A stretch of DNA of 33,223 bases from an uncultured Verrucomicrobiae bacterium (GCA_963788655.1 CAWBHS010000111.1:1-33223), one strand, 5' to 3'; shown: positions 3,861-24,954, counted from the stretch's first letter. The notes: generated from the sequence alone by a model not told the origin. Numbers and translations are program-made.

Positions 3861-4828
3861 CAACACCACCGCCGCGCGTCCGTGCTGCTTGAGGATGGTG
3901 AAGATGTGCTGGAGGAAATTGAGCTGCTTGTTGCTCGTGCTCGCCCAAAAATCGTCGCGGTTGATGATGAGCGATTCCTTGGACGACTCGCCCGCCTCGT
4001 TGACGATGGTCACACTACTCTTCTTGCCGAACGGCGGATTGGCCAGGACAATCTCGTATTCGCCGTGTTTCCCGGCCAGCGCATCCTTCGTCACTACAGG
4101 TAAGCCGCCGTCGCCCAATGGGAGGTCGGACTCCGACCCGATGCCGTGCAAAAGCAGATTCATCGCGCAGAGCCGGGTAACGCCATCCACCAGCTCGATG
4201 CCGAACAATGTTCCATTCCGGAGCTTCTTCTTCTGCGCGCGATCAAGCTGGTAATGCCTGGCAATGTAATCATGCGCCGCGAGCAGAAACCCGCCAGTCC
4301 CGCAAGCGGGGTCACAAATCATATTGCCAGGTGCAGGTTGCACCACATCCACCATCGCGGCGATGAGCGGGCGCGGCGTGAAATATTGGCCCGCGCCGCC
4401 TTTCACGTCCTCGGCGTTCTTTTGCAGCAACCCTTCGTAAGCGTCGCCCTTCACGTCGGCGGACAGGCTGGACCACTGCTCCTTGTCAATCAGGTCCAAG
4501 ATGAGCCGGCGCAGCTTGGCTGGGTCTTGGATTTTGTTCTGCGCCTTGCGGAAAATGACACCGAGCATGCCCGCCCGCTTGCCGAGTTCCTCCAACGTGT
4601 GCCGGTAAAGAATTTCCAGATCATCGCCATCCGCGCCCAGCAACGCCCGCCAATCCTTGCCCTTGGGAATGGGCGACGGCTTGTTGAACGGCGGACGCGA
4701 CTGTTCATCCGCCATTTTCAAGAACAGCAGAAACGTGAGTTGTTCAACGTAGTCGCCGTAGGACAGGCCGTCATCCCGCAGGATGTTGCAGTAGTTCCAA
4801 AGCTTTTGGACGAGGGCGGTGGGGGTGC
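3861..4828 (-). pseudogene. hsdM: Type I R-M methyltransferase hsdM, copy A; start codon at 6979 is separated by ISAs1 and the 3' third is lost
   Basis: LVQKLWNYCNILRDDG, GQYFTPR, motif I DPACGTGGFL, motif IV NPPF; homology to the full copy stops at GRAAVVL. Confidence 0.92.
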
Positions 4829-6965
4829 CAGGGCCAATGCGACGTTCTGAGCCAAGCTGCTGAGGATTAGGTGGTCAGCACTTTTTGCGGGACAAGCGCC
4901 CTTAAACTTTTTAGGGTTGGGCGCATGAGCAAGTATCCATTGCCCGCACCCGACGAACAGACTTTGCTGGACCAGCTTCAGGTCAGGCTGGTAGAGCCGC
5001 TCGAGCTGCCTCGGTTTCATAGTCTGCTCCGTCGCTTCCATTATCTCGGAAGTCTCAAAGCCGTGGGTGAACGGCTTTACTATGTGGCCACTGACGGCGA
5101 AGGTGACTGGCTTGGGTTACTGGTTTTCAACGGTGCCGCCAAGCACTTGAAGCTCCGCGAGAAGTGGATCGGCTGGACGAGTGAGCAGGCGCGGCGACGG
5201 CTGAGCTTGGTCGTCAACAACAGTCGCTTCTTACTGTTGCCGCATAAGAACGTCCCCAATCTGGGCTCCAAGGCGTTGCGGTTGGTTTTGGAGCGGCTTG
5301 GCAATGATTGGCAGGCCCGCTACGGCCATCGGGTGTTGGTGGTCGAAACGTTTGTCGATCCCGATCAGTTTTGCGGCACGGTTTACACGGCCAACGGTTG
5401 GGAAGAACTCGGTCAGACCGATGGGTGGGGACGCCAACGCCGCGACTACTACGTCAAACATGACCAGCCCAAGCGGTTGTTCGTGCGGGAACTGTGCCGC
5501 AACGCCCGCCGGAGTCTGCAAGCCGAGCATCTCAAAGCCGATCTGGCCATGGTCGAAGCCAAAGTGCCGAGGCGCTGCCCCATGCGGTTTAAAGAAATTG
5601 AGTCCATCGCCCAACAATTCAAGCACGTGCCCGAATATCGTTCTCGCTATGGCTCCTACCCGCTGTGGTCGCTGTTGACCATCGTCTTGCTGGCGGTGCT
5701 GTGCGAGGCGCCCCGAGGCCAAAAGGACCGGGAGAAATTTGCGCGCGGTTTCAGCCAGGGGCAACGCCGAGCTTTGGGAATTCGCCGCAACCCGCAGGGC
5801 AAATACCCGGCGCCCCATCAGTCGACTTTTTGCCGATTTTTTCAGCACGTCGATGGCCGCAAAGTCGAGGAAGCCATCCTGGCCATCCAGGCGCAAGTGC
5901 GAGGCAAGCCGCCCACCGAAGACCTGATCGTCTTGGATGGCAAGGAGCCCAAGCATGGCGGAGGTCAGGCGGTGCTCAGTGCGGTCACCGTCCCCAGCCA
6001 GTTTTACCTGGGCAGCGCCATCGTGGAAAAAGACAAAACCAACGAGATCCCGGTGGCTCGCCAACTCTTTGAGCGCTTGGATTTGGCAGGGCGCTTGGTT
6101 TCGCTCGATGCCCTGCACACCCAGAAGGAAACCGGGCGCGAACTGGTGATCGAGCATGGAGCCGATTATCTGCTCACGGTGAAGGACAATCAGGCCACCG
6201 TCCACCGAAACATCGAGCAACTGATCCCGGCCCCCCAGGCCGATTTTCCCCCCTCGGGAGCCCACGCCGACCCAAGCGCGCACCCAGGAAATCAACAAAG
6301 GCCGTCCTGAGAGCCGGTCCCTCCGCACGGCGGTGCTGAGCGCCGAGCAAATCGGCTTTCCCTTGGCCGAACAAGGGGCGCTGCTTTTACGCCAAGTTAA
6401 AGGGCGCAAAGACGAACTGGTTTCCTTGGTGACCAGCGCGGAGCCGGAGAAACTGCCCGCGCAAAAATGGCTGCGCTACAACCGATTTGCCTGGGGGATT
6501 GAAAACGGCACCCATCAACGTTTGGATGTCTCTCATAACGACGATCGATGCCGGATCCGCAACTCCAACGGAATCTGGGTCATGGGGATGTTCCGGCGCC
6601 TGGGCAACAGCCTCTTTATGGAATGGCGATCCCGTCAGCCTAAGCCCGAACACGAAACCACGACCGATTTCCAGATGCTGATGGCTGAAGAGCATCGGCG
6701 CCGAGCCGGGCGCACCGTCTTGTCCAAACGGCCCGGGTTTGCTTGAGGTGGAGCCCACGGGTGAGGCCGCCCCTCGAAGTTCTCAGCGAACTTCGCGGCG
6801 GAGCTTTGCCGCCCAATCCCTTAAATCCGCCGGTGGAACGGCATCTTGGCCTCCAACGGTGCTTCCTCGCGACGTTGGCCGCTGCAGGGACCACTAAGCC
6901 AAGGCCCATGCCGATCGTCTCCCCGCGACCTTGGCGAGCCCAGAACGCTTCGTGCATTGCCCCTG
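4829..6965 (+). mobile_element. ISAs1-family insertion sequence inserted in the first codons of hsdM copy A
   Basis: Terminal IRs CAGGGCCAATGC (4829) and GCATTGCCCCTG (ends 6965); 10-bp flanking direct repeat GTGGGGGTGC (4819-4828) / GTGGGGTTGC (6966-6975). Confidence 0.93.
4925..6746 (+). CDS. DUF4338 (DruA-like) domain fused to an ISAs1-family transposase; frame change at 6244-6253
   Basis: N-terminus HYLG, NNSRFLLLP, VETFVDP, YTANGW (DUF4338); C-terminus LDGK, KTNEIPVA, DALHTQ, DYLLTVKDNQ, then EINKGRPESR and WGIENGTHQRLDVSHNDD in the next frame. Confidence 0.88.
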
Positions 6966-7029
6966 GTGGGGTTGCTCATGAATGAAAATTCCAGTTGTCG
7001 GCGGGCTCAATTTCTGCTTTATTAACTGC

Positions 7030-7070
7030 GGAGGCTTTGTGGGGCGTAAGTTCTGCATTGCCTTTTTTAT
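7030..7070 (+). ncRNA. Candidate DUF3800-associated small RNA (hairpin plus U-tract), convergent with the DUF3800 gene
   Basis: AGGC-TT-TGTGGGGC-GTAA-GTTCTGCA-TT-GCCT-TTTTT: GNRA tetraloop and four G-U pairs that only form on the + strand; possible promoter TTGTCG-17-TTTATT at 6995-7023. Confidence 0.6.
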
Positions 7071-7974
7071 TTTCCCTCATCCGCTTCCCGCTCCTTTTTG
7101 GGACGAAGATCATCCATATAAAAGACACCATAGACCGGCCATTCCTTCCCATCGCTTTCATCAAAGCGCTTCCCGACATAACGCATGTCAAACGCCGCCT
7201 TCGCCAACGGCTCAATTTCTTGTCGCGTGGCCTCGGTCATCTTGTTCAACCGCGTGCCCCAGTTAAAACAATACGCCGCGATGTCAGCCAGTTGCACCGC
7301 CGTGGTGAGGTCGCTGTGGACGAAGAACGGCTCTGGCACAATTCTGGAACTCCGCTGATAACCCTTTTCCGTTTCCAAGAAATACCGCTCCATCTGGTGG
7401 ATTAGGATTCGGCTTTTGGCTTTCTCCAGTTCATCAAACACCACCAAGCCCATTTCCGTCGGCGAGCGGTCTTCCAAATAGTAATAAAATCGCTGGAAGA
7501 GAAAGGCGTAATCCCGGCGCAGCATATTGGGATCGCCCGGCTGCGAAGCTTCCGTGCTCACCAGCGCCGCGAAAGTTTTCACGCGATGACTGGCGCAAAG
7601 ATCGAGCACACGCCCGACAAACGCCCGCGCCGCCTGACCATAAGCCGTGAACTCATCCCGAATGCGCGCCTCCGCTGCACCACCTTGGGATTCACGCCAG
7701 CCCTTCATTAAAAAGTCCCGCGCCAAATCCCGCCGCCGGTTTGGTTCAATTGCCGGACCTTGCCGGGCGTGCTTGAAAGTTTTGTTTTTCAGGAGTTTGT
7801 TGCCCTTGAACTCCACGCCGACTTTCGCCAGATGAACTCCAAAAAACTCAATCTCCGCCGCGCGGATAGCCTGAATCAAATTCCATAAATCCGCTTCCGC
7901 CACCGCCACTGCTGCCAGAACTTCATAAGGCCATCGCCGTGGTCGTGGCCGCTTTCATCAATGAAGAAGAGCAT
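7067..7974 (-). CDS. DUF3800 domain protein (RNase H-like fold); one indel near the 5' end
   Basis: MLFFIDESG start, VVFDE, and FVHSDLTTAVQLADIAAY: the DES...QLAD signature of DUF3800. Confidence 0.85.
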
Positions 7975-7986
7975 GGGAAAGTTTTA

Positions 7987-8097
7987 TCAGAGTTGGCCTG
8001 AAAACGCACGCTGAAGGATGGACTGGCGGAGGCTGCTGGCGCGCTGGAGGTTGGCGGACACCACCGACTCCAACTCCTCCACCACGCTCAACCGCCG
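7987..8097 (-). repeat. hsdS: Duplicated hsdS 3' end (conserved terminal helix)
   Basis: RRLSVVEELESVVSANLQRASSLRQSILQRAFSGQL* versus RRLSVVEELESVVTANLQRATRLRQSILQKAFTGEL* at 17691-17801. Confidence 0.92.
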
Positions 8098-8109
8098 CTT
8101 GTCTGCAAC

Positions 8110-8304
8110 CAGCAACGCCGGCCAATCCTTGCCCTTGGGAATGGGCGACGGCTTGTTGAACGGCGGACGCGACTGCTCATCCGCCATTTTCAAGAACAGC
8201 AGAAAGGTCAACTGCTCCACATAATCGCCGTAGGACAAACCGTCATCACGAAGGATGTTGCAGTAGTTCCAGAGTTTTTGGACGAGGGCGGTGGGTGTGC
8301 TCAT
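8110..8304 (-). repeat. hsdM: Truncated hsdM 5' end, copy D (65 codons), fused in frame to the hsdS 3' fragment
   Basis: MSTPTALVQKLWNYCNILRDDG...KGKDWPALL, then VADK, then hsdS sequence. Confidence 0.92.
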
Positions 8305-8841
8305 TTTGTAGATTTTGATTTCCGTTTGCGAGAAACGTGTGACTTTCGCTTCGTGTTCTTCGTTTCGCGCATATAAACCTTCTTGAGACCAAGAAACATG
8401 TGGTATTGGCTTTTTCCCGTTCTGATAATTGGTCCACGCAAATCCAAACTCACGCGATTCTCTTTCTGTCACTTCGTGTTCTTCAGATAGAGGCGCAACA
8501 CCTTTTCCTCTTAGTGTTTTTAATGCGGCATTGACCGACATTTTGACTGCATCCCATGCAAAACCTTGAACAATTCCCTCCCACATCACTAAACCCAATG
8601 CAACAAGCCAGGGGTCTGGAGGAACGAGTGAATATTCTATACGTTTCCCTTGGCGCTTATCCGCCGCCTCCATCGCAGGGTAAAGAACGTGTTCGTAAAT
8701 TAGTGAAGAAACACGAATGCGCGCATTAAATGGATTTTCCTTAAAGTGCGGGTTGGTCACATGGATGTTTACTCCGTCGCGTTGCGGAGCATCGGTTACA
8801 TTCACCTCGAATGTTTTTGGGTTAAATTGGATATATTTCAT
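8301..8841 (-). CDS. Hypothetical protein, AT-richer cargo gene
   Basis: ORF from 8841; removing one C near 8409 gives ...QYHMFLGLKKVY...KSTK*, whose TGA overlaps the hsdM ATG (ATGA) as at other junctions. Confidence 0.6.
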
Positions 8842-8857
8842 TTTGGGATGAGATTGC

Positions 8858-9338
8858 TCACGATGCGGGCGTTGAGTTTTTCCGGAAAAGTTCTTCGATC
8901 TTGATGTGGGCGAAATAAAGCGTGGCCGAAACTGTTATCGCCCCCACAACCGATGTAAGCAAAAACGCCGATTGGTAAGGCTCAGGCGCTTTCCAATCGA
9001 AAAAAAAGGCAGGACACTCCTGCGACCGTGAATATGGCCGCATATGCCAGCCCAATAATGCAGCCGAGCTTGAAGTCAAAGTAGAGTTCCCAACTTTGCA
9101 GTGCGTTGCGTTTGTCAGCCTCTGGCATCAGGATGTTTTTAACTACGGTTGTGTCGTAAACAACCAGTCCGACGGGCAAAAGCCCGAAATACTTTAAAAG
9201 CTCTGCTTGGCTGCCGACGCGTTCGCTGAGCCACCCAAGTCCTGATGGAAAGAAAAGCCACGCAGCTGCCCCCGCTACGCAAACGAAAAACTCAAGCGAC
9301 ACCAAGACGTATCGCAAAATTGATAGCAGGGTTTTCAT
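8858..9338 (-). CDS. Hypothetical membrane protein with about 4 TM segments; indel in the A8 run at 9000-9007
   Basis: Four hydrophobic stretches across two joined frames; start coupled (TGATG) to the upstream gene. Confidence 0.7.
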
Positions 9339-10231
9339 CAATGCTGCATGTCCCGTTCTTCTGAAATCCCTTCAAAGAATTTCGCCGCAGCTTTGGCGAG
9401 TTCGGATGGTTCGGGCTCTTTTGCGAATAGGAAGCTTTTGTGTGTGTCGGAAGTCCGAATCACGACCTCCTCGCCTCCTTGCTCTCCGATTATCTTGCCG
9501 TGACCATACCCGTCTGCAGCCATGAGCATTGCGGCGTCGGTTATGTCGACAGGAGAATCTGTTTGAGAAGCCGCCTGCGAATGCTCCAAAAGGTTTTGCA
9601 TTATCGTCAGGAGCTGAGTGTTAATGCCACCGCCATCCGTTTTCTTCTCCCGAATAGCGACCTCCTCCGCATTTCTGCGAACGATATAGTCTTTGAGCTT
9701 CGCCCAGCGGTCTCCAAAAAGTGGATTCGGAGGATGAACCTTTGCGCTCATCTCCGTGATCCGTTCCAAACTGTGGAGTTTTTCAACAAATTCGCGGTAG
9801 TCGGCAACTGGTTCGACAGAACACTCCACAAAGAAGTTTTCGTATGCCGCTTGGATGAGCGAGCAAAACCGCTTTGGGAAGAGGTCTTCCTGAATCCCGT
9901 TCCAAACATGCATAAAGGCGATGCCGGAGAAATTAGGCAAATAGACGAATGGTGAGCTGGCAACCAGAAGGTTTGGCGCTAGCGCTTCACGCTGGGCTTT
10001 ATTTGCGGGATCAACAACAGTGACGTGCCCCTCGCTGGAATACTTTGCAAGTTTGCCAAAGACGAACTTCGGAATGCTCTGTTGGCCATCCACTGCATCG
10101 GTGATTGCCCAATCAAATTTACCGATTCGCAGGACAGGTGCATTCAAGGCTGCGGCAATCAGCTTGTCTTGCGTCAACCCGCCCATCTTAATGACGCGAG
10201 ACATGTAGTATCGTCCTTTTTGTTTCTTCAT
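9338..10231 (-). CDS. Hypothetical protein, tentatively DUF4747-like
   Basis: Intact 297-aa ORF, AT-richer than hsd genes, with KVHPPNP and AADGYG motifs; family call from recollection only. Confidence 0.6.
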   Translation of the reverse strand: MKKQKGRYYMSRVIKMGGLTQDKLIAAALNAPVLRIGKFDWAITDAVDGQQSIPKFVFGKLAKYSSEGHVTVVDPANKAQREALAPNLLVASSPFVYLPNFSGIAFMHVWNGIQEDLFPKRFCSLIQAAYENFFVECSVEPVADYREFVEKLHSLERITEMSAKVHPPNPLFGDRWAKLKDYIVRRNAEEVAIREKKTDGGGINTQLLTIMQNLLEHSQAASQTDSPVDITDAAMLMAADGYGHGKIIGEQGGEEVVIRTSDTHKSFLFAKEPEPSELAKAAAKFFEGISEERDMQH

Positions 10232-10268: not shown

Positions 10269-10395
10269 TTAAACTCCCTGCTGCTTTCCTTTGCTGTAAT
10301 AGATGGCGATCAGTTTTTGCAGCGCAGCAGAAACGCGTTTCCCGTCCTTTGCCAACGATGCCAAAACCAAATCGTTGACAGTCTTGTCTTTCAAC
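10269..10395 (-). pseudogene. 3' remnant of an unknown cargo gene cut by IS66
   Basis: LKDKTVNDLVLASLAKDGKRVSAALQKLIAIYYSKGKQQGV* begins exactly at the IS66 left end. Confidence 0.5.
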
Positions 10396-10453
10396 GTAAC
10401 CGTCCGGCGACGCCGTCTTACGCTGAGCGCAGCGGGCGTGGCAGGATGGCGGG

Positions 10454-10813
10454 GTGAAACAACGAACATCCAAATCCGCCGAACTCCGACGACATCGCAC
10501 CCCAGAAGAGAAAGCCAGGATCCTCAGAGAGCACGAACGCAGCGGGCTCTCGCTGCTGGCGTTTGCCCGAGCGCACGGGCTGTGCTACGCAAGCCTGCGC
10601 CGCTGGAGATCCCGCCCCTGCCCGGGATCCCTCGTTCCCGCAGCGCCTGCTCCCCAGGCCGATCCGCGATTCGTCCCGGTGACGGTCGAAAGTGAAGTCT
10701 CGGGCGGGGATTACGTTCTGAACTTGGCCGGAGGGCGTTCTCTGAGGATCCCGCTGCGGTTCGAGCCAGATTCCTTGCGCCGACTGCTCAGCGTGCTGGA
10801 GGGCGTGCAATGA
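10454..10813 (+). CDS. tnpA: IS66 accessory protein TnpA (HTH)
   Basis: EEKARILREHERSGLSLLAFARAHGL...LRRWR, FVPV, overlapping tnpB start. Confidence 0.82.
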   Translation: MKQRTSKSAELRRHRTPEEKARILREHERSGLSLLAFARAHGLCYASLRRWRSRPCPGSLVPAAPAPQADPRFVPVTVESEVSGGDYVLNLAGGRSLRIPLRFEPDSLRRLLSVLEGVQ

Positions 10814-11166
10814 TCGGTCTTTTGCCCACCACGACGATCTACCTGGCTACCGCTCCCACAGATTTGCGCAAAGCCTACGACGGGCTGGCGGTCTTGGTTC
10901 GCCAGAGCCTGGGTCAAGACCCGCTCAGTGGCAGCCTCTACGTTTTCTGCAACCGCCGAAAGGATCGGATCAAGATCCTCTTTTGGGAAGAAGGCGGGTA
11001 TTGGCTGTGCGCTCGACGGCTTGAGCAGGGGACCTTTCGTTGGCCACAGAAGCAAGAAACCTGCGCGCGCTACCGCCGCGAGGAACTCCTGCTGCTTCTG
11101 GGAGGCATCGACCTGGAGGAGACCCGAGCGCGGAAGTGGTATCGGCGCGGGGCGGAAAATAAATAA
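10810..11166 (+). CDS. tnpB: IS66 accessory protein TnpB
   Basis: PTDLRKAYDGL, DPLSGSLYVFCNRRKDRIKILFWEEGGYWLCARRLEQGTFRWP. Confidence 0.95.
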   Translation: MIGLLPTTTIYLATAPTDLRKAYDGLAVLVRQSLGQDPLSGSLYVFCNRRKDRIKILFWEEGGYWLCARRLEQGTFRWPQKQETCARYRREELLLLLGGIDLEETRARKWYRRGAENK

Positions 11167-11215
11167 ACTTCCCGCTGGACTCTACTCCTCATCTCTGCTT
11201 TCATCGTGGGCAGAG

Positions 11216-12091
11216 ATGAACGAAACCTTCGAACTTCAGGGTCGTAGCTGGCAGGCCCAACAGATCCAAGAGCTTGGTCAATGGGTGAGCCAGAACCCGA
11301 CGTGGAGCCGCTACCGGATCTCCCGCGAGCTGTGCATCCGGTGGAGTTGGATTCGCCCCAACGGGCAGTTGGCGGACATGGCCGCGCGCAGTTTCCTCAA
11401 CAAGCTCCACGCGCGAGCCCTGATCCAACTGCCCCCCTGCCGGCGGGCGAGTCCCAACCGGATGAAGCACCGGCAGCTGGCATGCGTGGCGGTGGACTCC
11501 CGTCCCGTGGAAGGAGAGCTGGGCCAGTTGGGAGCGCTTCATCTCCACGAAGTCAGCCGGGATCCGGAGCGCCGAGCGGTGTTTGAGAGCCTCCTGGCCC
11601 GGGAGCATTACTTGGGCTACCGCAGCCCGGTGGGTGAGAACCTCAAGTATCTGCTATGCACCGAGCAGGATCGTCCGGTGGCCGCCTGGCTTTTCGGCGC
11701 GGCGGCCTGGCGGTGTGAGGCGCGGGATCGGTGGATCGGCTGGAACGATCGCGAGCGTGCCGCCGGACTCCATCGAATGACCAACAACACCCGGTTCCTC
11801 ATCCCCCGGTGGGTGCGGGTCCGTGGACTGGCCAGCTGGGGTTGGCGTCAGGTGAGTCGACGCCTGGTGAGCGACTGGAAAGCCAAGTATGGGCATGGCA
11901 TTGAGTTGGTGGAAACGTTCGTGGATCGGAGCCGCTTCCATGGAGGCGCTTACGCGGCCAGCAATTGGTTGGAGGTGGGGCTCACCCGAGGACGCAGCCG
12001 TGGGGATCGCGAGCGCCGGATCCATGTGCCCAAGAAAGCCGTGTATGTGTATCCACTGAGCAGCCAGGCTCGCCAAAGGTTGTGCCGATGA
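11216..12091 (+). CDS. Stand-alone DUF4338 (DruA-like) protein
   Basis: SRYRISRELC...W..PNG, HYLGYRSPVGENLKY, NNTRFLIP, VETFVD...YAASNW..VG.TRGR. Confidence 0.87.
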   Translation: MNETFELQGRSWQAQQIQELGQWVSQNPTWSRYRISRELCIRWSWIRPNGQLADMAARSFLNKLHARALIQLPPCRRASPNRMKHRQLACVAVDSRPVEGELGQLGALHLHEVSRDPERRAVFESLLAREHYLGYRSPVGENLKYLLCTEQDRPVAAWLFGAAAWRCEARDRWIGWNDRERAAGLHRMTNNTRFLIPRWVRVRGLASWGWRQVSRRLVSDWKAKYGHGIELVETFVDRSRFHGGAYAASNWLEVGLTRGRSRGDRERRIHVPKKAVYVYPLSSQARQRLCR

Positions 12092-12685
12092 GCGAGTCCC
12101 CAGAGGAAAGGCTGGCGGAGGAAATCCGGCGGTTGCGCGAGGAGAACGAGGCGCTGCGCCTTCAACACAGCCAATGGCAGTCGGAAAACGAGGCGCTGCA
12201 CCTTCAACACAGTCAATGGCAGTCGGAGAACGAGGCGCTGCGCCTTCAACACAGCCAATGGCAGTCGGAGAACGAGGCGTTGCGAATCCAGCTCCAGGAG
12301 CTTGAAGTCATTCGTCGCAACCTGGAGCACACGATCGCCGTTTACCAGCGATGCCTCTTTGGTTCGCGATCCGAGAAGATTGATCCCAAAGAACTGGAGG
12401 CGCGGATTGCCCAAGCGGCAGCCGAAGCCCGGGAACAACTGGCCAAGGAGAAACGCCCCGGAGATCCTCCGCCCGAAGCCGAGGAAGAACAACCCGAAGA
12501 GAAGGCTACGGCAGACACCTCTGCCGACCCAGCCGACCCATCCACGGATCGGCAGAAAGCCAAGAAGCGCAAAGCTCGCCCGCACGGTCGCGGAGGTTTT
12601 CCCGCGCATTTGCCGCGTCGACGAATCGAGCATCCCGTCGATCCCGCCAAGGCCGTCTGTGCATGTTGCTCGGATCATCCCCCCC
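12088..12685 (+). pseudogene. tnpC: IS66 transposase TnpC, N-terminal part only
   Basis: Coiled coil, LFGSRSEK, HGRGGFPAHLPRRRIEH, start of the zinc finger CACC; DDE domain absent. Confidence 0.85.
12142..12284 (+). repeat. 42-bp tandem repeat, about 3.4 copies, in the tnpC coiled coil
   Basis: GAGAACGAGGCGCTGCGCCTTCAACACAGCCAATGGCAGTCG units at 12142, 12184, 12226 and a partial one at 12268, encoding ENEALRLQHSQWQS. Confidence 0.95.
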
Positions 12686-12756
12686 GATCGCCTCAGCCGC
12701 CGAGGCAACCCACCTGCGATGCGGGTACCGAAACACTCCGCTCCCCGCCTGCCCAT

Positions 12757-15859: not shown

Positions 15860-15868
15860 GCCAGTGGT

Positions 15869-16180: not shown

Positions 16181-16188
16181 GTCCTGCT

Positions 16189-17694
16189 TCAAACGATCGT
16201 AGTTTTCGTCATGCGGCTTTCTGCCATGCGTTTTGCAAGAGTGTCGCACATGGAAGCAACTTGTGCGCTTAAGTCGCCAGTCACATCGTATGTTATTCCA
16301 CCAACGCGGCTGCTCTCATCGAACAAACCAGGCGGTGCATCGGAAAACCAAACCGGAATGACCCCACCCTTTTTGAATTTCTTCTTAAACTGGTCGGATT
16401 CAAATTTTGTCCAGATGCGTTTCGGATATTCCTTGCTCAAAAGCACGACGACAAATTGGGCATCCGATTGGTAGATGGGGCGCAGGTAGTCTTCAACGTC
16501 CTCCGCAAGTATCCGGTGTTGTTCATTCTTGTCGTAGAAGACTTCGACCTCTCGATCACCAAGATTTGCAAAGATTGCCTCTGCGACATTTCGTTCTGAA
16601 CCAGCGAAAGAAAGCGCAAAATCATACCGTGATGGAAATTTGATTCCAAGGTAGCCAACATCCTCTGCAAAGCGATCCCAAGAAATATTTCGCAAGTAAA
16701 ATACGAATTGCGGATCTTCAACTGTCAACAGATGGTTGCGAGCCTCATAATGCACTACTTCGGCCATTTGCGGCACTGACCTCAACAAATCAACCAAGTA
16801 GTTCTTTTCGATGATTTGCGTTAAGCTGCCCTTCAAATCGGGATACCGCACCTGAGCTTTATCCAGCGAGAGCGTCCATTCGTCAGACGTGCCGAGCCAA
16901 TACAACAAATGGAGATACGGAGCACGACCCTCACGCCTCAAGCGTGTTCCTTTGGCAAATTCTTGGGTGCGGGACTGAAACCGCCTGGCAAGCGTATCGA
17001 AAACACGCGCTTTAACCTCTGGAAAGCTGATGGTTGTCTCGCTTTCTACCTCTTGTGCTTCAAGAACACCTGCATCAAGGCACGTGTGATAGGCCAACAT
17101 TTGCGCCAAATAGAAGCTACCTTTGGCAGACTCAATAATTTCGTCCCGGATGTTTATGGCGACTTTTAGAGCTTCCTCACCCTGTCGCAGGATTTCAGCG
17201 ACTCGTTTATCTGGGTTTGCTTCGAACGGGATGGTTTCTAGTCTGTTCGTTAGATCGTCTGCAAAATTTATTAAGGCTTCACCAGCTCTGTTGATTCCAA
17301 TCGCCACGACCTTACTGTCTGCGCGACCTTCGTCTGCCAGAACTTTCATCAAGTCGGCAATTTGTCTCTTTTCGCCGTCGGGCAGCTTGTGAAAATCGTC
17401 TATTATCACTGTTCCCAAAGGCTGCATTTTTGGGAGTTCCTTGATAAGCGCGACATCTTCAGATTTCCGGGCTGAGAGCTTCACGGCTTTCTCTGTAATT
17501 CCAACCTCTTCCATTGCCTTCGTGATGGCGGTTGTCTTGCCGATTCCCGATGGACCTTCGACGATAATCCCTCTACCAGGTGTCTTGAGCGCCATAAGCA
17601 GGCGTGGGTATTCCTCTGGCTTTACAAAGGTATACTTTGGGATGCCTGAAATAGTGAACACTTCGTGTAATTGCAATTTTGGGTCGTTGCTCAT
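16189..17694 (-). CDS. P-loop ATPase (STAND/AAA-like) with C-terminal TIR domain, 501 aa
   Basis: Walker A GPSGIGKT, Walker B VIIDDFH; TIR YDFALSFAGSER...VFYD...LLSKEY..RIWTKFE; ATG overlaps the hsdS stop. Confidence 0.87.
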   Translation of the reverse strand: MSNDPKLQLHEVFTISGIPKYTFVKPEEYPRLLMALKTPGRGIIVEGPSGIGKTTAITKAMEEVGITEKAVKLSARKSEDVALIKELPKMQPLGTVIIDDFHKLPDGEKRQIADLMKVLADEGRADSKVVAIGINRAGEALINFADDLTNRLETIPFEANPDKRVAEILRQGEEALKVAINIRDEIIESAKGSFYLAQMLAYHTCLDAGVLEAQEVESETTISFPEVKARVFDTLARRFQSRTQEFAKGTRLRREGRAPYLHLLYWLGTSDEWTLSLDKAQVRYPDLKGSLTQIIEKNYLVDLLRSVPQMAEVVHYEARNHLLTVEDPQFVFYLRNISWDRFAEDVGYLGIKFPSRYDFALSFAGSERNVAEAIFANLGDREVEVFYDKNEQHRILAEDVEDYLRPIYQSDAQFVVVLLSKEYPKRIWTKFESDQFKKKFKKGGVIPVWFSDAPPGLFDESSRVGGITYDVTGDLSAQVASMCDTLAKRMAESRMTKTTIV

Positions 17695-19207
17695 AATTCT
17701 CCTGTAAAAGCTTTTTGGAGGATGGACTGGCGGAGGCGGGTGGCGCGCTGGAGGTTGGCGGTCACCACCGACTCCAACTCCTCCACCACGCTCAACCGCC
17801 GCTCCACTTCCGCCACGATCCGCGTCTGCTCGGCCAGCGGGGGAAGCGGGATAGCAAGCATCGATTCGAGCTGAATCGATGAGTTGACGCCTGGGCGTGT
17901 CACGCCGCGAACATGCGCTAGGCGACGCGTGCTTCACGTATCAGCCCGGTAACTGCGCTAATGCGTAAACCGCGATCGCTGAACTGATGAAGATCGCTGA
18001 ATTCAGCGTGCACGGCAGAATATGCCCTGTCATTCTCCAATCATGCAGCCACGCCGGTCGAACGCAGACGTTGCCGAGCGAGCAGCCTGATGTCGCCAGA
18101 GCTCGCCAGCGCAGACTTATAACGCGCGTGCTGGTGAATTTCGGCGTACGCATAATGCAGCCTGTCCGGTCTGAACCCGTTTCCACGCACGTTCTGACCG
18201 CAATGAACTGGCACGCCGCATCTCCGTGTAATTCGTGTTGTGCAATTGAGCCGACGGTCCGGCCTGCACGCGTGTTAGACGATCTTGTCCAGATACCGAC
18301 TCGCCCACGTCCAGCCTTCGGGAAGCGACGGGAGATTGGCGGTGTCGGGGGCGGCGGGTTCTTTGTATTTGCCACGGCCCTGCCAGTTTTGGCGGCGCTC
18401 GGTGAGGATGCGGGCGAGGAGTTCCGCGCCGGTTTCAAACTTGGTTTTCGACTTCTGCCCTCGGCCCGCTGACTTCTGAAGTTCTGCCTCCGTGGGGACG
18501 AGGCGGCCTTCGCAGGCGGCTTTGAGGACGGCGGCGCGGTAGCGTTTGAGGTTGGCCTGCACCCGCCGCAACGCCGCCACCCCCGCCTCCAGCCGCGTGA
18601 ATTGCTTCTCAATCTCCGCCACAATCCGCCGCTGTTCGGTTCATGGAAACAGGAACGAAAAGTTTAGAACGAAGAAATGTCGCGTCGGTCGCACCGCTGG
18701 ATAAAGCGCGCCTTGAACCTTCTCGCACATCGCATCAATGAAATCATTGGTCTGAACAGCGTAGAAAAGAAATCCCGGCTCGGCGTCCTTTGCGCGCAGC
18801 ACATGAAAGCCAGTTGAACCAATCGCGCCGTCAAGGTCAGGCGGAACAAGCGCCACGGCGTTGAGATTTGGGCGCGTCATGGACACAACCACATCGCCAG
18901 CTTTCAAGACCTGCTTTGCCCGACTTGGCGCTTTCGCTACTGGCAAGACCTTCGGCTCAATGATTCGCTTCGTCTCGCGGTCGATACTGCTAATGTCAAC
19001 GTAGGTGAATTCTCCCCGGCTCGGTGGGCCGTCCTGAGCCACGCGGCTTTCCGTCATTTCACCAAGCGCAACCGTGTCACTTTCTTTCGCCGCTTCAGGG
19101 CTCGACATGTTTGGGGAAACGTGACTCAGGGCGGCGTCGCTGCGCTCCTTGCCCTGGGCTAATTTCTTTCGCCCCGTTGGGGCTGCGGTTGTGGCGTTCG
19201 CGCTCAT
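17691..19207 (-). CDS. hsdS: Type I R-M specificity subunit HsdS; many indels, TRD2 garbled
   Basis: TRD1 APSRAKQVLKAGDVVVSMTRPNLNAVA...STGFHVL; central EQRRIVAEIEKQFTRL...LPEGWTW; C-terminal IPLPPLAEQTRIVAEVE. Confidence 0.9.
19081..19184. repeat. Multi-hairpin palindromic repeat element encoding the HsdS N-terminus
   Basis: TTTCTTTCGCC direct repeats flanking CAGGGCGGCG...TTGCCCTG, ending in a GCCCCGTTGGGGC hairpin. Confidence 0.65.
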
Positions 19208-20091
19208 TGCCAAAGCGGATGTTGCCGCCAGTTCGACGGGATGCTCATCGGCGGCAGCGGAATTTCTTTGTATGCGTCGAACAATTTGAAGAGCCGCGTG
19301 TGCCACTGGCTTTGCGGCGCGGTTTGTTTCAGCGCATACCGGAGCAACGTGAGTACTGCGAAGATGCGGTGGTTCGGCACGGCGTGCGGTGGATGCCAGC
19401 GGGCATCGTGGCGGGCGTCGGGCAGCATCGGCTTGATGGCGAGTTCGCGATTCCAGAGCCGGGCGTGGTGGGCGCAGAGGTTGCGGATGTAATTCAGCGT
19501 GAGCAGCCAGGAGAAAAGCACGTTGCCGCTGATGCGCAGGTCCGCGCCGATGGTGCGCTGGGTGTGTTTGCCGCAGTGCCGGAACATGGTGAGCATCTGG
19601 CCGAAGGTCATGGTTTCGGCGGCGGTCCAGAGCGGCAGGTCGGGGAATTCGTCGTAGGTCTTGCGGAAATGGTCCACAAAAACTTCGCGGCTGCGCATGG
19701 CGTTGTCGTGGAGGTCATCGAGCAAGCGTTGGTGGTCCGCCGCCGGGATGCCGGGAAAGGCGGCGGGGGTTAAGTGGGCGAATGCGCCATGCCGGTGGAC
19801 GAGTTCATAGACGAGCCGGGAGCGGATGGCGATCTCGACGCGCTCAATAGCGTCCATGATGAGCAGGCGGAGCTGGCGGTCGAAGGTGTAGCGCCGCCAG
19901 ACGTTGGAGAAATTCGTGCCGGGCGCAAAAGAATTATCCGGCTGCTTGAACGGATACCAGTAGGCGCTGAGACGGTAGTAGCTGACGGCGGCGAGCCGGG
20001 CGACGAGTTCCGCCTTGTCGGCCACCAGACCGCGCGCGAGCAACTGGTCGGCTTGTTGATCGTAGGTGAGCGGGAGTTTGGCGTATTTCAT
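19204..20091 (-). CDS. Abi family (AbiD/AbiF, Abi_2, HEPN) protein
   Basis: VSYYRLSAY, YTFDRQLR, IERVEIAIRS, PLW..E.MTFG, HEPN RNLCAHH.RLWNR. Confidence 0.93.
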   Translation of the reverse strand: MKYAKLPLTYDQQADQLLARGLVADKAELVARLAAVSYYRLSAYWYPFKQPDNSFAPGTNFSNVWRRYTFDRQLRLLIMDAIERVEIAIRSRLVYELVHRHGAFAHLTPAAFPGIPAADHQRLLDDLHDNAMRSREVFVDHFRKTYDEFPDLPLWTAAETMTFGQMLTMFRHCGKHTQRTIGADLRISGNVLFSWLLTLNYIRNLCAHHARLWNRELAIKPMLPDARHDARWHPPHAVPNHRIFAVLTLLRYALKQTAPQSQWHTRLFKLFDAYKEIPLPPMSIPSNWRQHPLWQ

Positions 20092-20115: not shown

Positions 20116-20172
20116 AATAAAAAACCCGCCACATTTGAGCTTGGCTTGCACCAGAGGCTTGGCAGGTATGCT
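20116..20172 (-). ncRNA. abiF-type RNA motif (candidate RNA antitoxin) upstream of the Abi gene
   Basis: ACCTGCCA-AGCCTCT...-TGGCGGGT stem followed by a T-tract; possible promoter TGGACA-16-TATTGT just upstream. Confidence 0.72.
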
Positions 20173-20248: not shown

Positions 20249-20302
20249 TCATGCCGCGAGCACCTCGTTGAGTTCATCGAGCAGCTTGGGCAGTTGCTCG
20301 CC
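20249..20302 (-). repeat. hsdR: Duplicated hsdR 3' end
   Basis: GEQLPKLLDELNEVLAA* versus GDQLPALLDELNTVLAA* at 22101-22154. Confidence 0.88.
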
Positions 20303-20309
20303 GCTTGTG

Positions 20310-20415
20310 GGAGCGCGGGCTTCAGCCCGCTTCACCGTGGACCTACCAGGAGACGTGACGGCATTTCCAGCGTCGTCGGCATCCGGGCGTTGAAGCGGCG
20401 TGAACGCCGCGCTCC
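20310..20415. repeat. Inverted GGAG-type REP doublet
   Basis: GGAGCGCGGGCTTCAGCCCGCTTCA (20310-20334) and inverted GGAGCGCGGCGTTCACGCCGCTTCA (20391-20415), with compensatory stem changes. Confidence 0.8.
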
Positions 20416-20433
20416 GAGATTGGCGCGTCGCAT

Positions 20434-20745
20434 TCATTTCCGTGACCCCCGTTTTTTGCGCGTCGGTTCCTGTTCTTCGGCAGGTGCTGTCACGCGTTGG
20501 GCACAGGACGGGCAACGAAAGATATTATCCGCCAATTGCACGAAGCGGAGGCCGGTGTCTTCACCCAAGGCGTCGCTGCGGCAGGTGATCAGCAGGCCGG
20601 TGCTGGTGACATCCTCCAGCAGGCCGCAGCGTGGACATTCCAGCAACTCGCGTTCGTTGGTGAAGACGCCGAGGGCCTTCGCCCGCTTTTGCAGGTCGGT
20701 TAGCTCCCGAGCCAGTTCATGCAGTTTCGTGTCTGACGGTTTCAT
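20434..20745 (-). CDS. Small hypothetical zinc-ribbon protein
   Basis: CPRC and CPSC motifs; ATGA overlap with the fic stop. Confidence 0.7.
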   Translation of the reverse strand: MKPSDTKLHELARELTDLQKRAKALGVFTNERELLECPRCGLLEDVTSTGLLITCRSDALGEDTGLRFVQLADNIFRCPSCAQRVTAPAEEQEPTRKKRGSRK

Positions 20746-21962
20746 GCAGCCCTCCCGGCGGGTTCGACCGGCAAATCAAGGAAGAGTTGCGGGAAGTAGA
20801 ATTCGTGAATTTTCGCCGGGAACGCCACGCGCAGCGGGCCTTTGGGACTGGGGGTTTCAAAATAACCCTCCTTCAGTCCCAGCTTGATGATTTCGACGGA
20901 GACGGTGGCGGCTTTGCCGGTGATTTCCTGCACGCGGGCGCGCGGGATTTCGCCTTCATCCACGAGGGTGCGAGCCACGTGCATCAGTTCCTCCCGATAG
21001 CGCTTGAGATGCAGGGCCTGAAACTGGAAGTAGCGTTCCACCCGTGTGCGCAGCGCGGGCAGGTTCAGGAGTCCGCTCATGAACTGGATCTGGTCGAGCA
21101 TGGTTTCGAGGAAGAACACGCAGAAGTCGGCCAGCGCCGCGTCGGAGAGATTGCCCCGGCCATCGAGATCGCCGCGCCGCCCCTGATCGGCGGCTTCCAG
21201 GCTGGCGTAGTAGCGTTGCCGATGGCGGGCCAGGCCGCGTGCGAGCGTCCACAGGCCGTGGCCGGCAATGCCGTGGTGGATCATCTGCGCGTGGGATTGG
21301 AGCCGGATGACGCGGCCGTTGCCGTCGCCAAATGGGTGGATCCAGGCAAGCCGATGGTGTGCCGCAGCGATGGCCACCAGACGGTCGGTTTCCAAAATAT
21401 ATTTGTCCCCGTAGAAGGAGTGAAACCGGCTCAAGAACTGGGGCAAGGCGGCAAAATCCGGCGGGGTATGTTTGCCGACATCCACCATGAAATCGCGCAG
21501 GCTTCCGGGTTGGAGTTGGTAACGCTGACCGCTCTTGGTGACAGCCCAGTGCAACGGTTCGGGGAGGCGGGTATAAAATTCACGGTGGAGCCAGCACAGA
21601 AAATCGGGGGAATAAACGTCCACCGACTCTCCAGCCATTCGCTCTTCCATGAGTTTTTCCACCGCGATGTGGGCCAGACTGAGCTGCTGGTTGGCATGCT
21701 GGGTTTGATCGTGCGAGAAATCGCGCTTCATCGCCCGTTCGATGTCCCGGGGGATGGTCTTGTGACCTTCGATCAGGTTGGAATAATAGCAGTTCATTTC
21801 GCGGACCAAATCCGCCACCCGCTGGAGCACCAGCGGTGAATGAACTTGGCCAGTCAACCGGCCCGACGCCTTGAGGATTTCACAGGTCAATTCAGCCAGA
21901 CGGCCACTCTGTGCCTTAGGGAGCAGAGGTTCCATCGCGCTGGGCTGCCGGTAAACTTCCAT
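20742..21962 (-). CDS. Fic family protein
   Basis: YYSNLIEG inhibitory-type motif and canonical HPFGDGNGRVIR. Confidence 0.93.
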   Translation of the reverse strand: MEVYRQPSAMEPLLPKAQSGRLAELTCEILKASGRLTGQVHSPLVLQRVADLVREMNCYYSNLIEGHKTIPRDIERAMKRDFSHDQTQHANQQLSLAHIAVEKLMEERMAGESVDVYSPDFLCWLHREFYTRLPEPLHWAVTKSGQRYQLQPGSLRDFMVDVGKHTPPDFAALPQFLSRFHSFYGDKYILETDRLVAIAAAHHRLAWIHPFGDGNGRVIRLQSHAQMIHHGIAGHGLWTLARGLARHRQRYYASLEAADQGRRGDLDGRGNLSDAALADFCVFFLETMLDQIQFMSGLLNLPALRTRVERYFQFQALHLKRYREELMHVARTLVDEGEIPRARVQEITGKAATVSVEIIKLGLKEGYFETPSPKGPLRVAFPAKIHEFYFPQLFLDLPVEPAGRAA

Positions 21963-22100
21963 ATCTCGAATAATCCGAAAATCTTTGTGAAAATCTTAGA
22001 ACAATACTAAACCACTAGTAACAAGCATTTTGTAAATCATCAAATCTTCATTTCCAACCGTTATCCGAAAATCTGTCTGAAGACCATACCTCCACACGGG

Positions 22101-24954
22101 CTACGCGGCCAGAACGGTGTTCAGTTCGTCCAGCAATGCCGGGAGTTGATCGCCAAACAACTGGTGGGCTTTGCCCAGACCGCCGCGCTGCACGAAGGGA
22201 GCATAATCGAAATCCCCGGGTCAATGCTGATGGCCGTGGCGATGTGATCGCGGATCAAATTCAGCCACGCGAGTTGCTCCGTGTTGAATTTGACGCCGGC
22301 CTTGGCTTGGTCCATGAGCCATTCGTTGAAGCGTTCGGTCACGGAGTCGGCGAAGGGCGCGAGGACGGGCTGTTGTTCCAGCGCAAAGCGGACGAGGGCG
22401 ACGAGGTCGGCAAAGCGGCCGGCCTGCGAGCGGCCTTTGACCTTGCCGGGTTTGGCGGCGGCGAAGGCGTTCCAGAGATTGTCCTCGGTCCAGGCGGCGT
22501 GCTGGTCGCGGAGTTTCTTTTCCAGTTCCTTGAGCATCGGTTCGGTGAGCCGCTGTTTGTAGGGGCGGCGAGTAGAGCAACTGGAGCGCGGTGATCTCGG
22601 CCTGGTGCTGCTCGATGTAGTCGCGGAAGGACTTGGCGGTCTCGGCATTGTTTTGCGTGCTGGCCTGCGCCGGGCCGGCGTAAATCAGGGTGTCCCGCGA
22701 AATGATGTCGATGGTCTGCTCGGCGGCCTTGGCGACTTTCTTGAGCAGGTTGCGGAGGTCGGGGTTGGTGGCGAGCGGCGCAAGGGCGGCTTTGACGCGG
22801 AGGTCACGGACCTCGGCGATTTCTTTGGGCGTGGGTTCGACGTAGGAAGCGGCCGGCGACGGAGCGCCAGCCCTACCTTTGGCTTCCGCCAGGATTTCGT
22901 CGGGGTCAATGGCGGCCAGCATGGCCTTTGGAAATTTGGGCGAGGGTCTGGCCTTTGGCGGTTTTGACCACCTCGGCTTCCACTTCGGCATCGAAGCGGC
23001 GTTCGAGGCGAATTAGCCGTCCCGCGAGGGACTCGACGGCGGCGACTTCGGTCGTGCCGAGCGCGGCGGCATCGAGGAGTTTGTCGAAGCTGACGGTGGG
23101 TTTCTTTTCCAGCGGACGGGATTCGGTCTGCACGCGTTCGGTCACGCCCACGGCATCCACGATGAGGTAGCGGGTCTTGCGTTTGACGCCGGGGTTGACC
23201 TGTTCCATCTCGGTGTCGGACACCACGCGCACGCCGCGGCCTTTCATCTGCTCGAAGAAGTTTTTCGACGCCACGCTGCGCATGAAGAAGACGATTTCCA
23301 GCGGCTTGATGTCCGTGCCGGTGGCGATCATGTCCACGGTGACGGCGATGCGCGGATTGTAGCTGTTGCGGAAGGCGCTGAGGATTTGTTCCGGCGTCAG
23401 GCTGGCGGTGCGTTCCCATTTGAACACCTCGATTTCCTTGCCGTCCACCAGCTTCTTGCCGACCGGGATGCGGGTGAACCCGGTGCGGTAGGTGATTTTC
23501 TGGCAGAAGTCGTTGCCCTTGCCGAACACCTCGCGGCAGAGGCGGACGATGTCGTCGGCGTGGGTGTCGTCCTTGGCGAAGATGAGCGTCTTGGGCAGGT
23601 CGGTGCGGCCGGGAAACATCTCGGTGAACACCTTGTCGCGGAACGTTTCCAGCACCGTGCGGATCTGGTCGGTGGCAACGACGTCGCGGTCGAGGTCGCT
23701 GGCGTCGTAGGCGAGGACTTCGTCGAGCTGTTCCCAGCGGACCTTGCGCGTCTGGCGGTCGCGTTTGTCCACCCAGAGCCCGGCCTCCACCTTTGAACCC
23801 GCCTTCGGTGATCTGCGTTTTGATGCGGTAGATGTCGCAGCCCACGTTCACGCCATCGGCCACGGCTTTCTCGTGGTTGTATTCCATCACGAGGTTTTGC
23901 TGGAAGAAGCCGAAGGTCTGCTTGGACGGCGTGGCGGTGAGGCCGATGAGCGAGGCATCGAAATAATCCAGCACCTGCCGCCAGAGATTGTAGATGGAGC
24001 GATGGCATTCGTCGGTGACGATGAAATCGAATTCCTCGATGGGGAACGCGGGGTTGTATTCCACCGGGACGGGCTGCTTGAAGAGCGTTTCGGCGGATTC
24101 AATCGGCAGGTCATCGAGGTCGGGGGCGGTTTCCGTCTCGCCTTTGAGCATGGAGTAAATGCGCTGGATCGTGCCGATGACCACGCGGGCGGAGGTGTCG
24201 AGCTGATTGCTGCTCAGGCGCTGGACGATGTATTCCTCGGTGAACTTGTAGTTGTTCACGGGCGAGACGAACTGCTGAAATTCCTTGAGCGTCTGGTCGC
24301 CGAGATTGCCGCGATCCACGAGGAACAGGACGCGTTTCGCCCCGGCGTATTTGACGAGGCGATAGATGAAATTGACGGCGGTGAAGGTCTTGCCCGAGCC
24401 GGTGGCCATCTGGATGAGCGCGCGCGGACGCCCGGCGATCAGGGAGACTTCGAGATTTTTGATGGCCTCGAACTGCGCGGGCCAGAGGTTGCCTTGGTCA
24501 GCGGCGGAAATTCCTGAAGACGCTGGGCGAGTTGTTTTTCCTGCTGCACCCAGGCGAGCAAGGTTTCCGGGCGATGAAACGAGAACACGCGACGGCTGCG
24601 CGGCTGGGGATCGAGGCGGTTGGTGAAGAAAGTTTCCGCGCCGGTGCTTTCGTAACAGAACGGCAGCGGTGATTTCCAGGCGGGCAGGCCGAACGGCACA
24701 CCGGCGACATACTTGGCGGATTGTTCCTCGACGCTCGTGAGGGTCACGCCGGCGGGCTTGGCCTCGACCGTGCCGATGGCTTTGGCGTCCACGAAGAGCG
24801 TGTAATCCGGTTCGCCGGTGGCAAAGGAGAGTTCGCAAACCGCTACACCGCGAGTTGCGCTGAGAGGTTGATTTTATCCTTCGTTTGGACAGCCCAGCCC
24901 GACGCGGTGAGCATGCGCGTCAATCTGTTCACGGGCTTTTTCCTCCGGAGTCAT
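22101..24954 (-). CDS. hsdR: Type I restriction enzyme R subunit, several indels
   Basis: MTPEEKAREQID, PDY.LFVD...VEAK nuclease motif, MATGSGKT, DECHRS, GLTATP, ATGTD, QMKGRGVR, C-terminus LLDELNTVLAA*. Confidence 0.95.

Follow-up and report, generated by a model that had tools for sequence, protein, structure and literature searches.

The window analysed here (the whole stretch of DNA, 33,223 nucleotides, nt) is an entire 33-kb contig (C111) with repeats at its ends, from the metagenome-assembled genome (MAG) of an uncultured Verrucomicrobiae bacterium (8.96 Mb, 115 contigs, N50 126 kb, completeness 86%, contamination 5.6%). Its minus strand carries a complete type I restriction-modification (R-M) operon, hsdR-hsdS-hsdM (13655-24960), with defence cargo in both internal junctions, the R-S slot and the S-M slot, and a truncated second unit lies at lower coordinates; all genes of the array are on the minus strand. 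The cargo between hsdR and hsdM, likewise all on the minus strand, comprises a Fic gene, a zinc-ribbon open reading frame (ORF), AbiF, an AAA-TIR gene, a MazE-like gene and Doc. Short pieces of hsd gene ends, here called scars and marked by a prime, stand between these genes. The complete operon reads as follows:

22101..24960, minus strand: hsdR, full length against a 930-amino-acid (aa) reference, in at least six frame pieces
20745..21962, minus strand: SoFic-like Fic-domain gene, first cassette of the R-S slot (Pfam Fic, 3e-12; PADLOC SoFic, 5e-28)
20437..20745, minus strand: zinc-ribbon-like ORF of 103 aa, its start overlapping the Fic stop by 4 nt
20310..20416, no strand assigned: REP-like dispersed repeat of ~107 nt, between the zinc-ribbon ORF and the R' scar
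20249..20302, minus strand: R' scar, the last 17 codons of an hsdR allele (20302 to 20252) plus the stop
20124..20166, minus strand: abiF RNA candidate, just 5' of the AbiF ATG (Rfam RF03085)
19204..20091, minus strand: AbiF/AbiD (Abi_2) gene, second cassette of the R-S slot (Pfam Abi_2, 2e-52; PADLOC AbiD, 4e-65)
17691..19207, minus strand: hsdS, full length, read across one in-frame stop and one frame change; its ATG overlaps the AbiF stop
16192..17694, minus strand: AAA ATPase-TIR gene of the S-M slot (Pfam TIR_2 and AAA; PADLOC PDC-S59, 6e-20)
15866..16180, minus strand: M1' scar, the first 105 codons of an hsdM allele
15193..15824, minus strand: MazE-like antitoxin and Doc toxin genes, with a promoter-like TTGACA box at the left edge
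13655..15196, minus strand: hsdM (M2), full length, residues 1-485 of the 485 of HsdM from the related locus L011 (tblastn)
12760..13428, minus strand: NERD-domain gene downstream of hsdM (Pfam NERD, 8e-19)

All three hsd products could be aligned to those of L011, one of a set of related loci described below. HsdR contains ResIII (9e-36), SWI2_SNF2 and EcoEI_R_C (3e-19) domains (Pfam) and covers residues 4-930 of its L011 counterpart in six pieces (tblastn), while the HsdM_N and N6_Mtase domains of M2 are spread over three frame pieces. HsdS matches residues 157-266 and 406-459 (75% identity in the central part and 87% in the C-terminal part; tblastn), and its N-terminal part matches what relatives carry upstream of their HsdS core; the Pfam Methylase_S model finds no match on the frame pieces of the window hsdS and does match the homologues in relatives. 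A NERD gene likewise lies 3' of hsdM in two relatives, L061 and L062 (tblastn). By its family matches, which in PADLOC include PDC-S23 (6e-10) besides the three models listed, the embedded cargo belongs to known or candidate defence families.

Besides the breaks in hsdR and hsdS, M2 contains two out-of-frame stretches. These frameshifts are probably indel errors of a long-read assembly rather than decay, because the rpoB gene of this genome is broken as well, its Rpb2_6 domain being split across two frames (C45:53113-54568); further methylase genes are also split. Since such errors would be assembly-wide, frameshifts by themselves do not justify calling any gene here a pseudogene. An alpha-L-rhamnosidase gene adjoining the array (25256-28197) is broken into four frame pieces. 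The share of a contig covered by ORFs of at least 250 aa was tried as a measure of error and did not discriminate (0.78 for C111, against a contig median of 0.79).

The scars sit where the cargo borders the hsd genes or another cassette. In the R-S slot, R' ends GCGGCATGA, as does the native R/S joint, and is 88% identical to HsdR residues 914-930 (tblastn) and 83% to the product of the hsdR end at 22101-22154 (tblastx). A Fic homologue with 93% amino acid identity occurs in another genome of the order (G012) with an hsdR 3' piece directly behind it; 26 nt of that piece are identical to R', and no hsd gene lies within ~4 kb. In the S-M slot, the AAA-TIR gene begins with an ATG that overlaps the stop of hsdS, and it shares its first 9 nt with hsdM. 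It is followed by M1', which is 95.7% identical to 14881-15205 (blastn) and 89% to L011 HsdM residues 1-105 (tblastn), and then by the MazE-like gene (15824 to 15597) and Doc (15557 to 15273, probably on to 15193), assigned by Pfam MazE_antitoxin and Fic/DOC, NCBIfam doc_partner and a DOC_P1 match above cut-off (43.7 bits). The same 105-codon M' scar, MazE-Doc pair and hsdM are found in L006 (88.8% over 822 nt) behind different upstream cargo; there, the M' scar (8600-9360) is broken by three GC-rich inserts of ~138, 110 and 69 nt. The left edge of the Doc cassette is common to the window, L006, L017 and L021, and what lies to the left of it varies among the four loci: M' of 105 codons, M' of 25 codons with S', or a decayed M'.

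The second unit, lying behind an insertion sequence (IS), reads as follows:

10395..12689, plus strand: IS66-family element, with a 99.8% copy on contig C113 (Pfam HTH_Tnp_1, TnpB_IS66, LZ_Tnp_IS66)
8305..10231, minus strand: three low-GC cargo ORFs of 297, 119 and 178 aa, upstream of the M3' scar
7987..8304, minus strand: M3'-S' joint, hsdM codons 1-66 (8304 to ~8107) fused in frame to the last ~40 hsdS codons (~8106 to 7987)
7070..7975, minus strand: DUF3800 cargo gene, 11 nt past the S' stop (Pfam, 8e-9; N-terminal MLFFIDESG; one frame break)
3861..6979, minus strand: hsdM (M4), 15 nt at 6979 to 6965, then codons 5-319 in frame at 4828 to 3861
4829-6966: ISAs1-family insertion in M4, 2.1 kb, with a transposase gene at 4871-6307 (86 bits, cut-off 70)
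3237..3860, minus strand: fragment of an IS21-family transposase, fused to the truncated M4 and bounding the array on the left

The M3'-S' joint matches HsdM residues 1-74 and HsdS residues 423-459 of L011 (tblastn) and ends at the hsdS stop. The IS66-family copy separates the complete operon from this truncated locus, the ISAs1-family insertion has imperfect terminal inverted repeats and a ~7 bp target duplication, and the IS21 fragment (Pfam rve; NCBIfam transpos_IS21, 169 bits against a cut-off of 160, model positions 37-230 of 294) truncates M4 at codon 319 (base 3861). The mobile elements within the array delimit no cassette, and no scar of the main operon borders an IS.

A sequence-only reading of this stretch had proposed an array built on duplicated hsd gene ends, and its anatomy largely stands. 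The four hsdM ATGs that it listed (16180, 15196, 8304 and 6979) are all present in direct orientation (alignment, blastn, tblastn), except that the copy at 6979 amounts to 15 nt and forms one gene with the copy at 4828, the two being split by the ISAs1 element. Both hsdS 3' ends (17691 and 7987; tblastn) and both hsdR 3' ends (22101 and 20249) exist, the second hsdR end being just the 17 codons of R' (20302 to 20252). The ATGA joins were only partly as described: overlaps are found at 19204 (AbiF/hsdS) and 17691 (hsdS/AAA-TIR), and also at 20745 (Fic/zinc ribbon), but the Doc/hsdM overlap at 15193 requires one frame correction (in L006, the Doc ORF ends on the hsdM ATG) and at 8301 the upstream ORF runs in frame into the M3' fragment, with no stop on the ATGA. 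As to the two RNAs that had been attached to cargo, the abiF candidate is below threshold (34.8 bits against a gathering score of 37, E 0.0038), and a DUF3800-associated RNA found no Rfam match at E<=1 in 6800-22300; across the whole window, Rfam gave no match at the gathering threshold. A match to the Acido-Lenti-1 RNA at 19152-19184 (plus strand, opposite hsdS; 28.4 bits against a gathering score of 37) is probably due to chance.

When the window is compared to itself by blastn, all repeats are direct and far beyond chance (E<=2e-34), and a search for inverted repeats of at least 40 nt found none in the window. The longest pairs 3857-4828 with 14215-15192 (981 nt, 90.5%); the others pair 14881-15205 with 15865-16190 (326 nt, 95.7%, E 6e-149), 8109-8307 with 15001-15199 and 15985-16180 (~199 nt, 94-95%), and 8012-8099 with 17716-17803 (88 nt, 95.5%). 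The codon differences noted earlier are real (the Arg of ILRDD is CGC/CGC/CGT/CGG, and one copy has TACGTTGAACAACTC; alignment), and they are part of a general pattern: relative to M2, M1' has 8 synonymous and 3 non-synonymous differences (ratio of non-synonymous to synonymous rates, dN/dS, 0.10), M3' 10.5 synonymous and 2.5 non-synonymous (0.06) and M4 23 synonymous and 12 non-synonymous (0.14). Judged by these ratios (0.06-0.14), the hsdM copies are distinct alleles, as had been proposed, and would have diverged as working genes before coming together, because the ratio would tend towards 1 in dead fragments that diverged in place. S' and R' are less clear (5.5/9.5 and 11.5/5.5 synonymous/non-synonymous differences); between R and R', 11.5 of 13.7 synonymous sites differ and identity at the protein level is 83%. 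The hsd scars of related loci have a pooled pN/pS of 0.23, and some contain stop codons. Comparing the four hsdM 5' copies with their nearest neighbours settled nothing, since each is 91-96% identical to L001/L002, roughly the same as between the copies. Arrays with two scars showed no consistent trend in scar decay that could be taken as an age gradient.

The related loci, labelled L001 and so on, are the 80 best among 580 confirmed matches to a single HsdM N-terminal query (224 aa). These loci, at 70-98% identity, come from Verrucomicrobiota, Planctomycetota, Acidobacteriota, Pseudomonadota, Nitrospirota, Chloroflexota and others, and the operon is absent from the one same-genus genome searched; from this distribution, the operon family is clearly horizontally mobile. 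Two of the loci, L011 and L013, lack cargo and are compact, with genes overlapping at ATGA (in L011, all of R, S and M). The S-M gap could be measured in 60 loci: it spans 683-6093 nt in 52 and at most 233 nt in the remaining eight. The S-M cargo is diverse, including ABC-type ATPases (seven loci), RhuM (five), MazE/PIN-type pairs (five), ImmA-like helix-turn-helix plus M78 genes (four), DUF5131 (three), and AbiE, GmrSD, SLFN and Nmad3 (two each), and also Fic/Doc, RT+PRTase, HipA, DndB, Cap15, HEPN, KAP and DUF3800. R-S slots hold DUF1016 nucleases, SLFN, DUF4143, antitoxins and others. Many cargo ORFs start on the hsdS stop and finish on the hsdM start. Flanks are conserved but cargo differs in L001, whose hsdS 3' end and hsdM are 95.7% and 90.7% identical to those of the window, yet which carries RhuM as cargo. 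The two junctions thus behave as variable cargo slots, as the sequence-only reading had it. Cargo also looks to have been lost by internal deletion: the 62-nt hsdS-hsdM spacer of L031 (9930-9995) resembles the RhuM cassette of L001, L010 and L016 reduced to its first ~11 and last ~9 codons.

Scars are not peculiar to the window. A search of the 80 loci with the 485-aa HsdM gave 22 extra HsdM pieces, of which 19 begin no later than residue 10; 15 of the loci carry such 5'-anchored extra copies, so that the relatives show neither invariant slots nor a lack of terminal duplications, the pattern that had been named as speaking against the array. Of the 19, 17 precede the full gene, in 13 loci, and are at most 115 residues long; every extra HsdM piece is on the operon strand, and none reaches past residue 167. 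A motif scan gave at least two hsdM starts in 13 of 80 loci and no opposite-strand copy in 1.17 Mb. The opposite end is preserved in hsdR, where all five extra pieces, found between hsdR and hsdS, are 3'-anchored. Extra hsdS ends occur in L008, L016 and L021, the extra HsdS pieces extending to the stop codon; in L021 (6879-7479; also G025:C4:39970-40538), three tandem hsdS 3' ends with a spacing of ~203 nt stand upstream of other cargo and a Doc cassette. Breakpoints vary (23-115 codons for hsdM scars, 17-59 for hsdR scars), and stacked arrays of the form cargo-M'-cargo-M'-cargo-hsdM are seen in L004, L008 and L020. Direct M'-S' joints are found in the window, L008 (two), L016, L017 and L020, and in each of the six a single reading frame leads from the ATG of hsdM to the native stop of hsdS. 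The L008, L016 and L020 joints share a breakpoint (hsdM codon 25-26 to HsdS residue 419) and may represent one old event; this would leave ~4 independent joints, for which the chance of all being in frame is roughly 1 in 80.

Gene-end scars at cassette borders offer a readable record of how embedded defence genes arrive and turn over. On balance, we think the scars probably reflect homology-anchored recombination with allelic operons, in which one joint was illegitimate. In this scheme, allelic operons would exchange cargo through RecA-type homologous recombination, with the conserved hsd sequence that flanks a slot (3' ends of hsdR and hsdS, 5' end of hsdM) serving as homology arms. Two long arms would give a clean replacement of the cargo that leaves no trace. 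With one short arm, or with a circle entering by a single crossover, that side would be sealed by an illegitimate joint; the new cassette would then be added beside the resident one and an end-anchored hsd fragment of the other allele would stay at the border, a route that would make the scars short. Repeated rounds could have filled the R-S slot with Fic plus zinc ribbon / R' / AbiF and the S-M slot with AAA-TIR / M' / MazE-Doc, and the second unit (cargo-M'-S'-DUF3800-hsdM) would later have been severed by IS elements. The in-frame M'-S' mini-ORFs might bridge translation from upstream cargo to the next gene, and the direct repeats could allow RecA-dependent excision or swapping of cargo, perhaps as an ongoing process. 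Five features of the scars, that they are end-anchored, co-directional, allelic, variable in breakpoint and short, fit anchored recombination with one illegitimate joint, and stacking by recombination anchored in conserved hsd sequence, as first proposed, is the most economical origin. Such a process has a laboratory counterpart: in homology-facilitated illegitimate recombination and single-crossover (Campbell-type) integration, one homologous anchor and one illegitimate joint add DNA beside the anchor, which would yield an end-anchored duplicate from a second allele. It has been described in laboratory transformation with artificial donors, and to our knowledge it has not so far been linked to defence-cargo turnover inside operons.

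Several points weigh against this interpretation. The S' start is the same (VAEVERRL, residue 419 of a 461-aa reference) in the window (7987-8106) and in L016 (8535-8660), L020 and L008, although M' is 66 codons long in the former and 25-26 in the latter; a random illegitimate joint does not predict this, and the shared start points either to a preferred breakpoint or to a fixed left end of S' units. Short strings shared at joints, such as GTTGC at the M3'-S' joint, are only suggestive of microhomology. No pair among 31 intact hsdM genes (0 of 465) had a discordant 5' history, defined as synonymous differences of less than 0.15 over codons 1-105 but more than 0.45 over codons 106-319. Scar counts may overstate the number of independent events, since the M'-S' joint and the M1' scar are shared across loci, and the 80 loci are not a random sample. 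Lastly, the continuity of the array rests on the MAG assembly. Among public sequencing runs, none contained more than 0.15 of the sampled words from 13600-22200, and assembly of four runs gave short contigs from other metagenomes only, with hsdS end-hsdM start and R' end-hsdS start joints whose sides are 24-37 letters long; these contigs neither confirm nor refute the C111 assembly.

Alternatively, the scars could be the debris of whole operons, related type I R-M operons having lain side by side and been collapsed by deletions and IS activity. The truncated second unit, with its IS66-family element, ISAs1 insertion and IS21 fragment, has the look of such a ruin, and internally deleted hsd genes do occur in relatives (in L029, HsdR 1-222 is joined to 804-930; in L040, HsdR 1-326 is followed by an hsdS end). 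Random deletion, however, should also leave 3' or internal hsdM pieces and 5' hsdR pieces, whereas 19 of 22 HsdM pieces are 5'-anchored and five of five HsdR pieces 3'-anchored; nor does it account for six of six in-frame M'-S' joints or for main-operon scars that border no IS, and we regard this history as unlikely. A further possibility is that cassettes were inserted in situ with a long target duplication, the copies having diverged later or been overwritten by allelic replacement. The target-insert-target layout lacks a mobility gene at its border, empty sites are known (L011 and L013), and the repeats that flank cargo (~51-60 nt for R/R', 316 nt for M1'/M2) fall, at 51-316 nt, within the range given in the available text of Furuta et al. 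(2010; PMC2853133). That text describes target duplications with near-identical repeats, however, while M1' and M2 are 95.7% identical; copies that are 70-96% identical with mainly synonymous differences are unlike dead fragments diverging in place, and the M'-S' joints are not simple target duplications. This origin appears distinctly improbable.

That the contig is a chimera, in which strain alleles of one operon were concatenated by the assembler, is suggested by its source, a MAG with contamination in which the whole contig has repeats at its ends, but it appears very improbable: the same architecture is found in independent assemblies (M'-MazE-Doc-hsdM in L006, stacked arrays in L004, L008 and L020), the indel-type errors suggest long reads able to span repeats of 0.2-1 kb, and strain chimeras switch alleles without thereby making in-frame end-to-end joints. 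Least probable of all, we would give hardly any credence to a dedicated, unrecognised site-specific system that places cassettes at fixed positions in hsd gene ends as a true integron analogue. The S' start at residue 419 despite unequal M' lengths and the many cargo genes that begin and end exactly on ATGA overlaps are the kind of precision such a system would produce; the variable breakpoints of the hsdM and hsdR scars are not, and Pfam finds no recombinase gene at or near the cassette borders in the window and none that recurs among the slot-cargo matches of relatives.

Anchored recombination, the origin we prefer, may have a wider and at present rather doubtful extension: hsd remnants, besides being scars, could act as portable homology arms, the units hsdS3'-cargo-hsdM5' and hsdR3'-cargo forming an integrase-free cassette system of one operon family across many phyla, in which the restriction operon is a common docking platform, M'-S' mini-ORFs relay translation and cargo turns over by host recombination alone. 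Anchored recombination itself, should it prove widespread, would account for the co-orientation of cargo and the frequent ATGA overlaps, it would provide a simple rule to delimit embedded cassettes and hence to find new defence genes, and it would make cargo turnover testable with defined donor DNA in recA+ versus recA- hosts. The likeness to an integron, which the sequence-only reading had put as an integron without an integrase, extends to the layout only: cassettes share one orientation, are stacked after an operon that lies upstream, and have short recurring elements between them. There are key differences: (i), the IntI tyrosine recombinase is absent; (ii), the separators are hsd gene-end fragments of 17-115 codons, with breakpoints from codon 23 to 115 in hsdM, and nothing like attC/attI; (iii), several cassettes have their own promoter-like sequence or RNA motif. 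A fixed-architecture, attC-like site after each cassette was not evident, no attC model having been run. The term integrase-free itself is overstated, because two IS lie inside the interval and IS21 and serine-recombinase debris lies at its edge, although none of them delimits a cassette; among 119 window ORFs, Pfam matched no integrase family beyond the IS transposases and a serine-recombinase fragment at 1866-2633. Phase-variable type I shufflons, such as pneumococcal ivr, combine inverted hsdS copies with an adjacent recombinase to exchange recognition domains. They resemble this locus in having partial hsdS copies beside a type I operon, but here the copies are direct, comprise conserved gene ends rather than recognition domains, and border cargo.

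Embedding itself is known: type I R-M, BREX, DISARM and Hma loci have been reported to carry nested defence genes (Payne, Hughes, Fineran, Jackson 2024, 10.1101/2024.01.29.577857), examples being PrrC in EcoprrI and TgvAB in Vibrio cholerae VPI-2 (PMC11411939). As in those systems, anti-phage cargo lies between hsd genes in operon orientation, here SoFic, AbiD/F, a TIR-ATPase candidate and Doc. The available parts of these papers catalogue the cargo and address its function and, on its arrival, that of Payne et al. (2024) offers only a 'genomic sink' idea; the scars, the stacking and the M'-S' joints are features of the present locus. The R-M complexes of Furuta, Abe and Kobayashi (2010), inserted with long target duplications (PMC2853133), share direct repeats of tens to hundreds of bases flanking the insert with no integrase or transposase at the border; judging from the accessible text, R-M is the insert there and the repeats are near-identical, whereas here R-M is the target and the repeats are diverged alleles. 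Exchange of defence genes by homologous recombination has a precedent in Staphylococcus aureus, where, according to the available portion of the report, chromosomal defence islands are exchanged in this way after lateral transduction (PMC12829572). A literature search that fell short of most subscription journals and supplements returned no account of hsd-end remnants at cargo borders. What is new here is the end-anchored hsd scars at every cassette border, the presence of several cassettes per slot and the in-frame M'-S' joints.

Among the minor features of the array, the zinc-ribbon ORF has a weak Zn_ribbon_9 match under the cut-off (20.7 bits; Pfam). The REP-like repeat beside it keeps its 25-30-nt ends in other metagenomes while its middle varies; its 25-nt end has at least 20 further copies in the genome and is present in many genomes of the same order, and the ends are very abundant in the sediment metagenomes examined. 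The three cargo ORFs at 8305-10231 have no family match in Pfam, PADLOC or NCBIfam, and Atlas returned nothing usable for the 178-aa protein. The 297-aa protein (9341-10231) has an Atlas score of 0.98 to DUF4747/DUF6731/RexA clusters, obtained from language-model features only and with recognition below usual; together with the 119-aa hydrophobic ORF (8985-9341), it may form a RexAB-like abortive-infection pair. The LZ_Tnp_IS66 ORF of the IS66-family element contains three tandem 42-nt repeats (12141-12283) that are 93-97% identical. Finally, a 1.75-kb IS of the DDE_Tnp_1 type (185-1932), with four further copies in the genome at 99.6-99.9%, sits in or beside the serine-recombinase fragment, which is XisF-like (1866-2633; region 1866-3249), at the left edge of the array.

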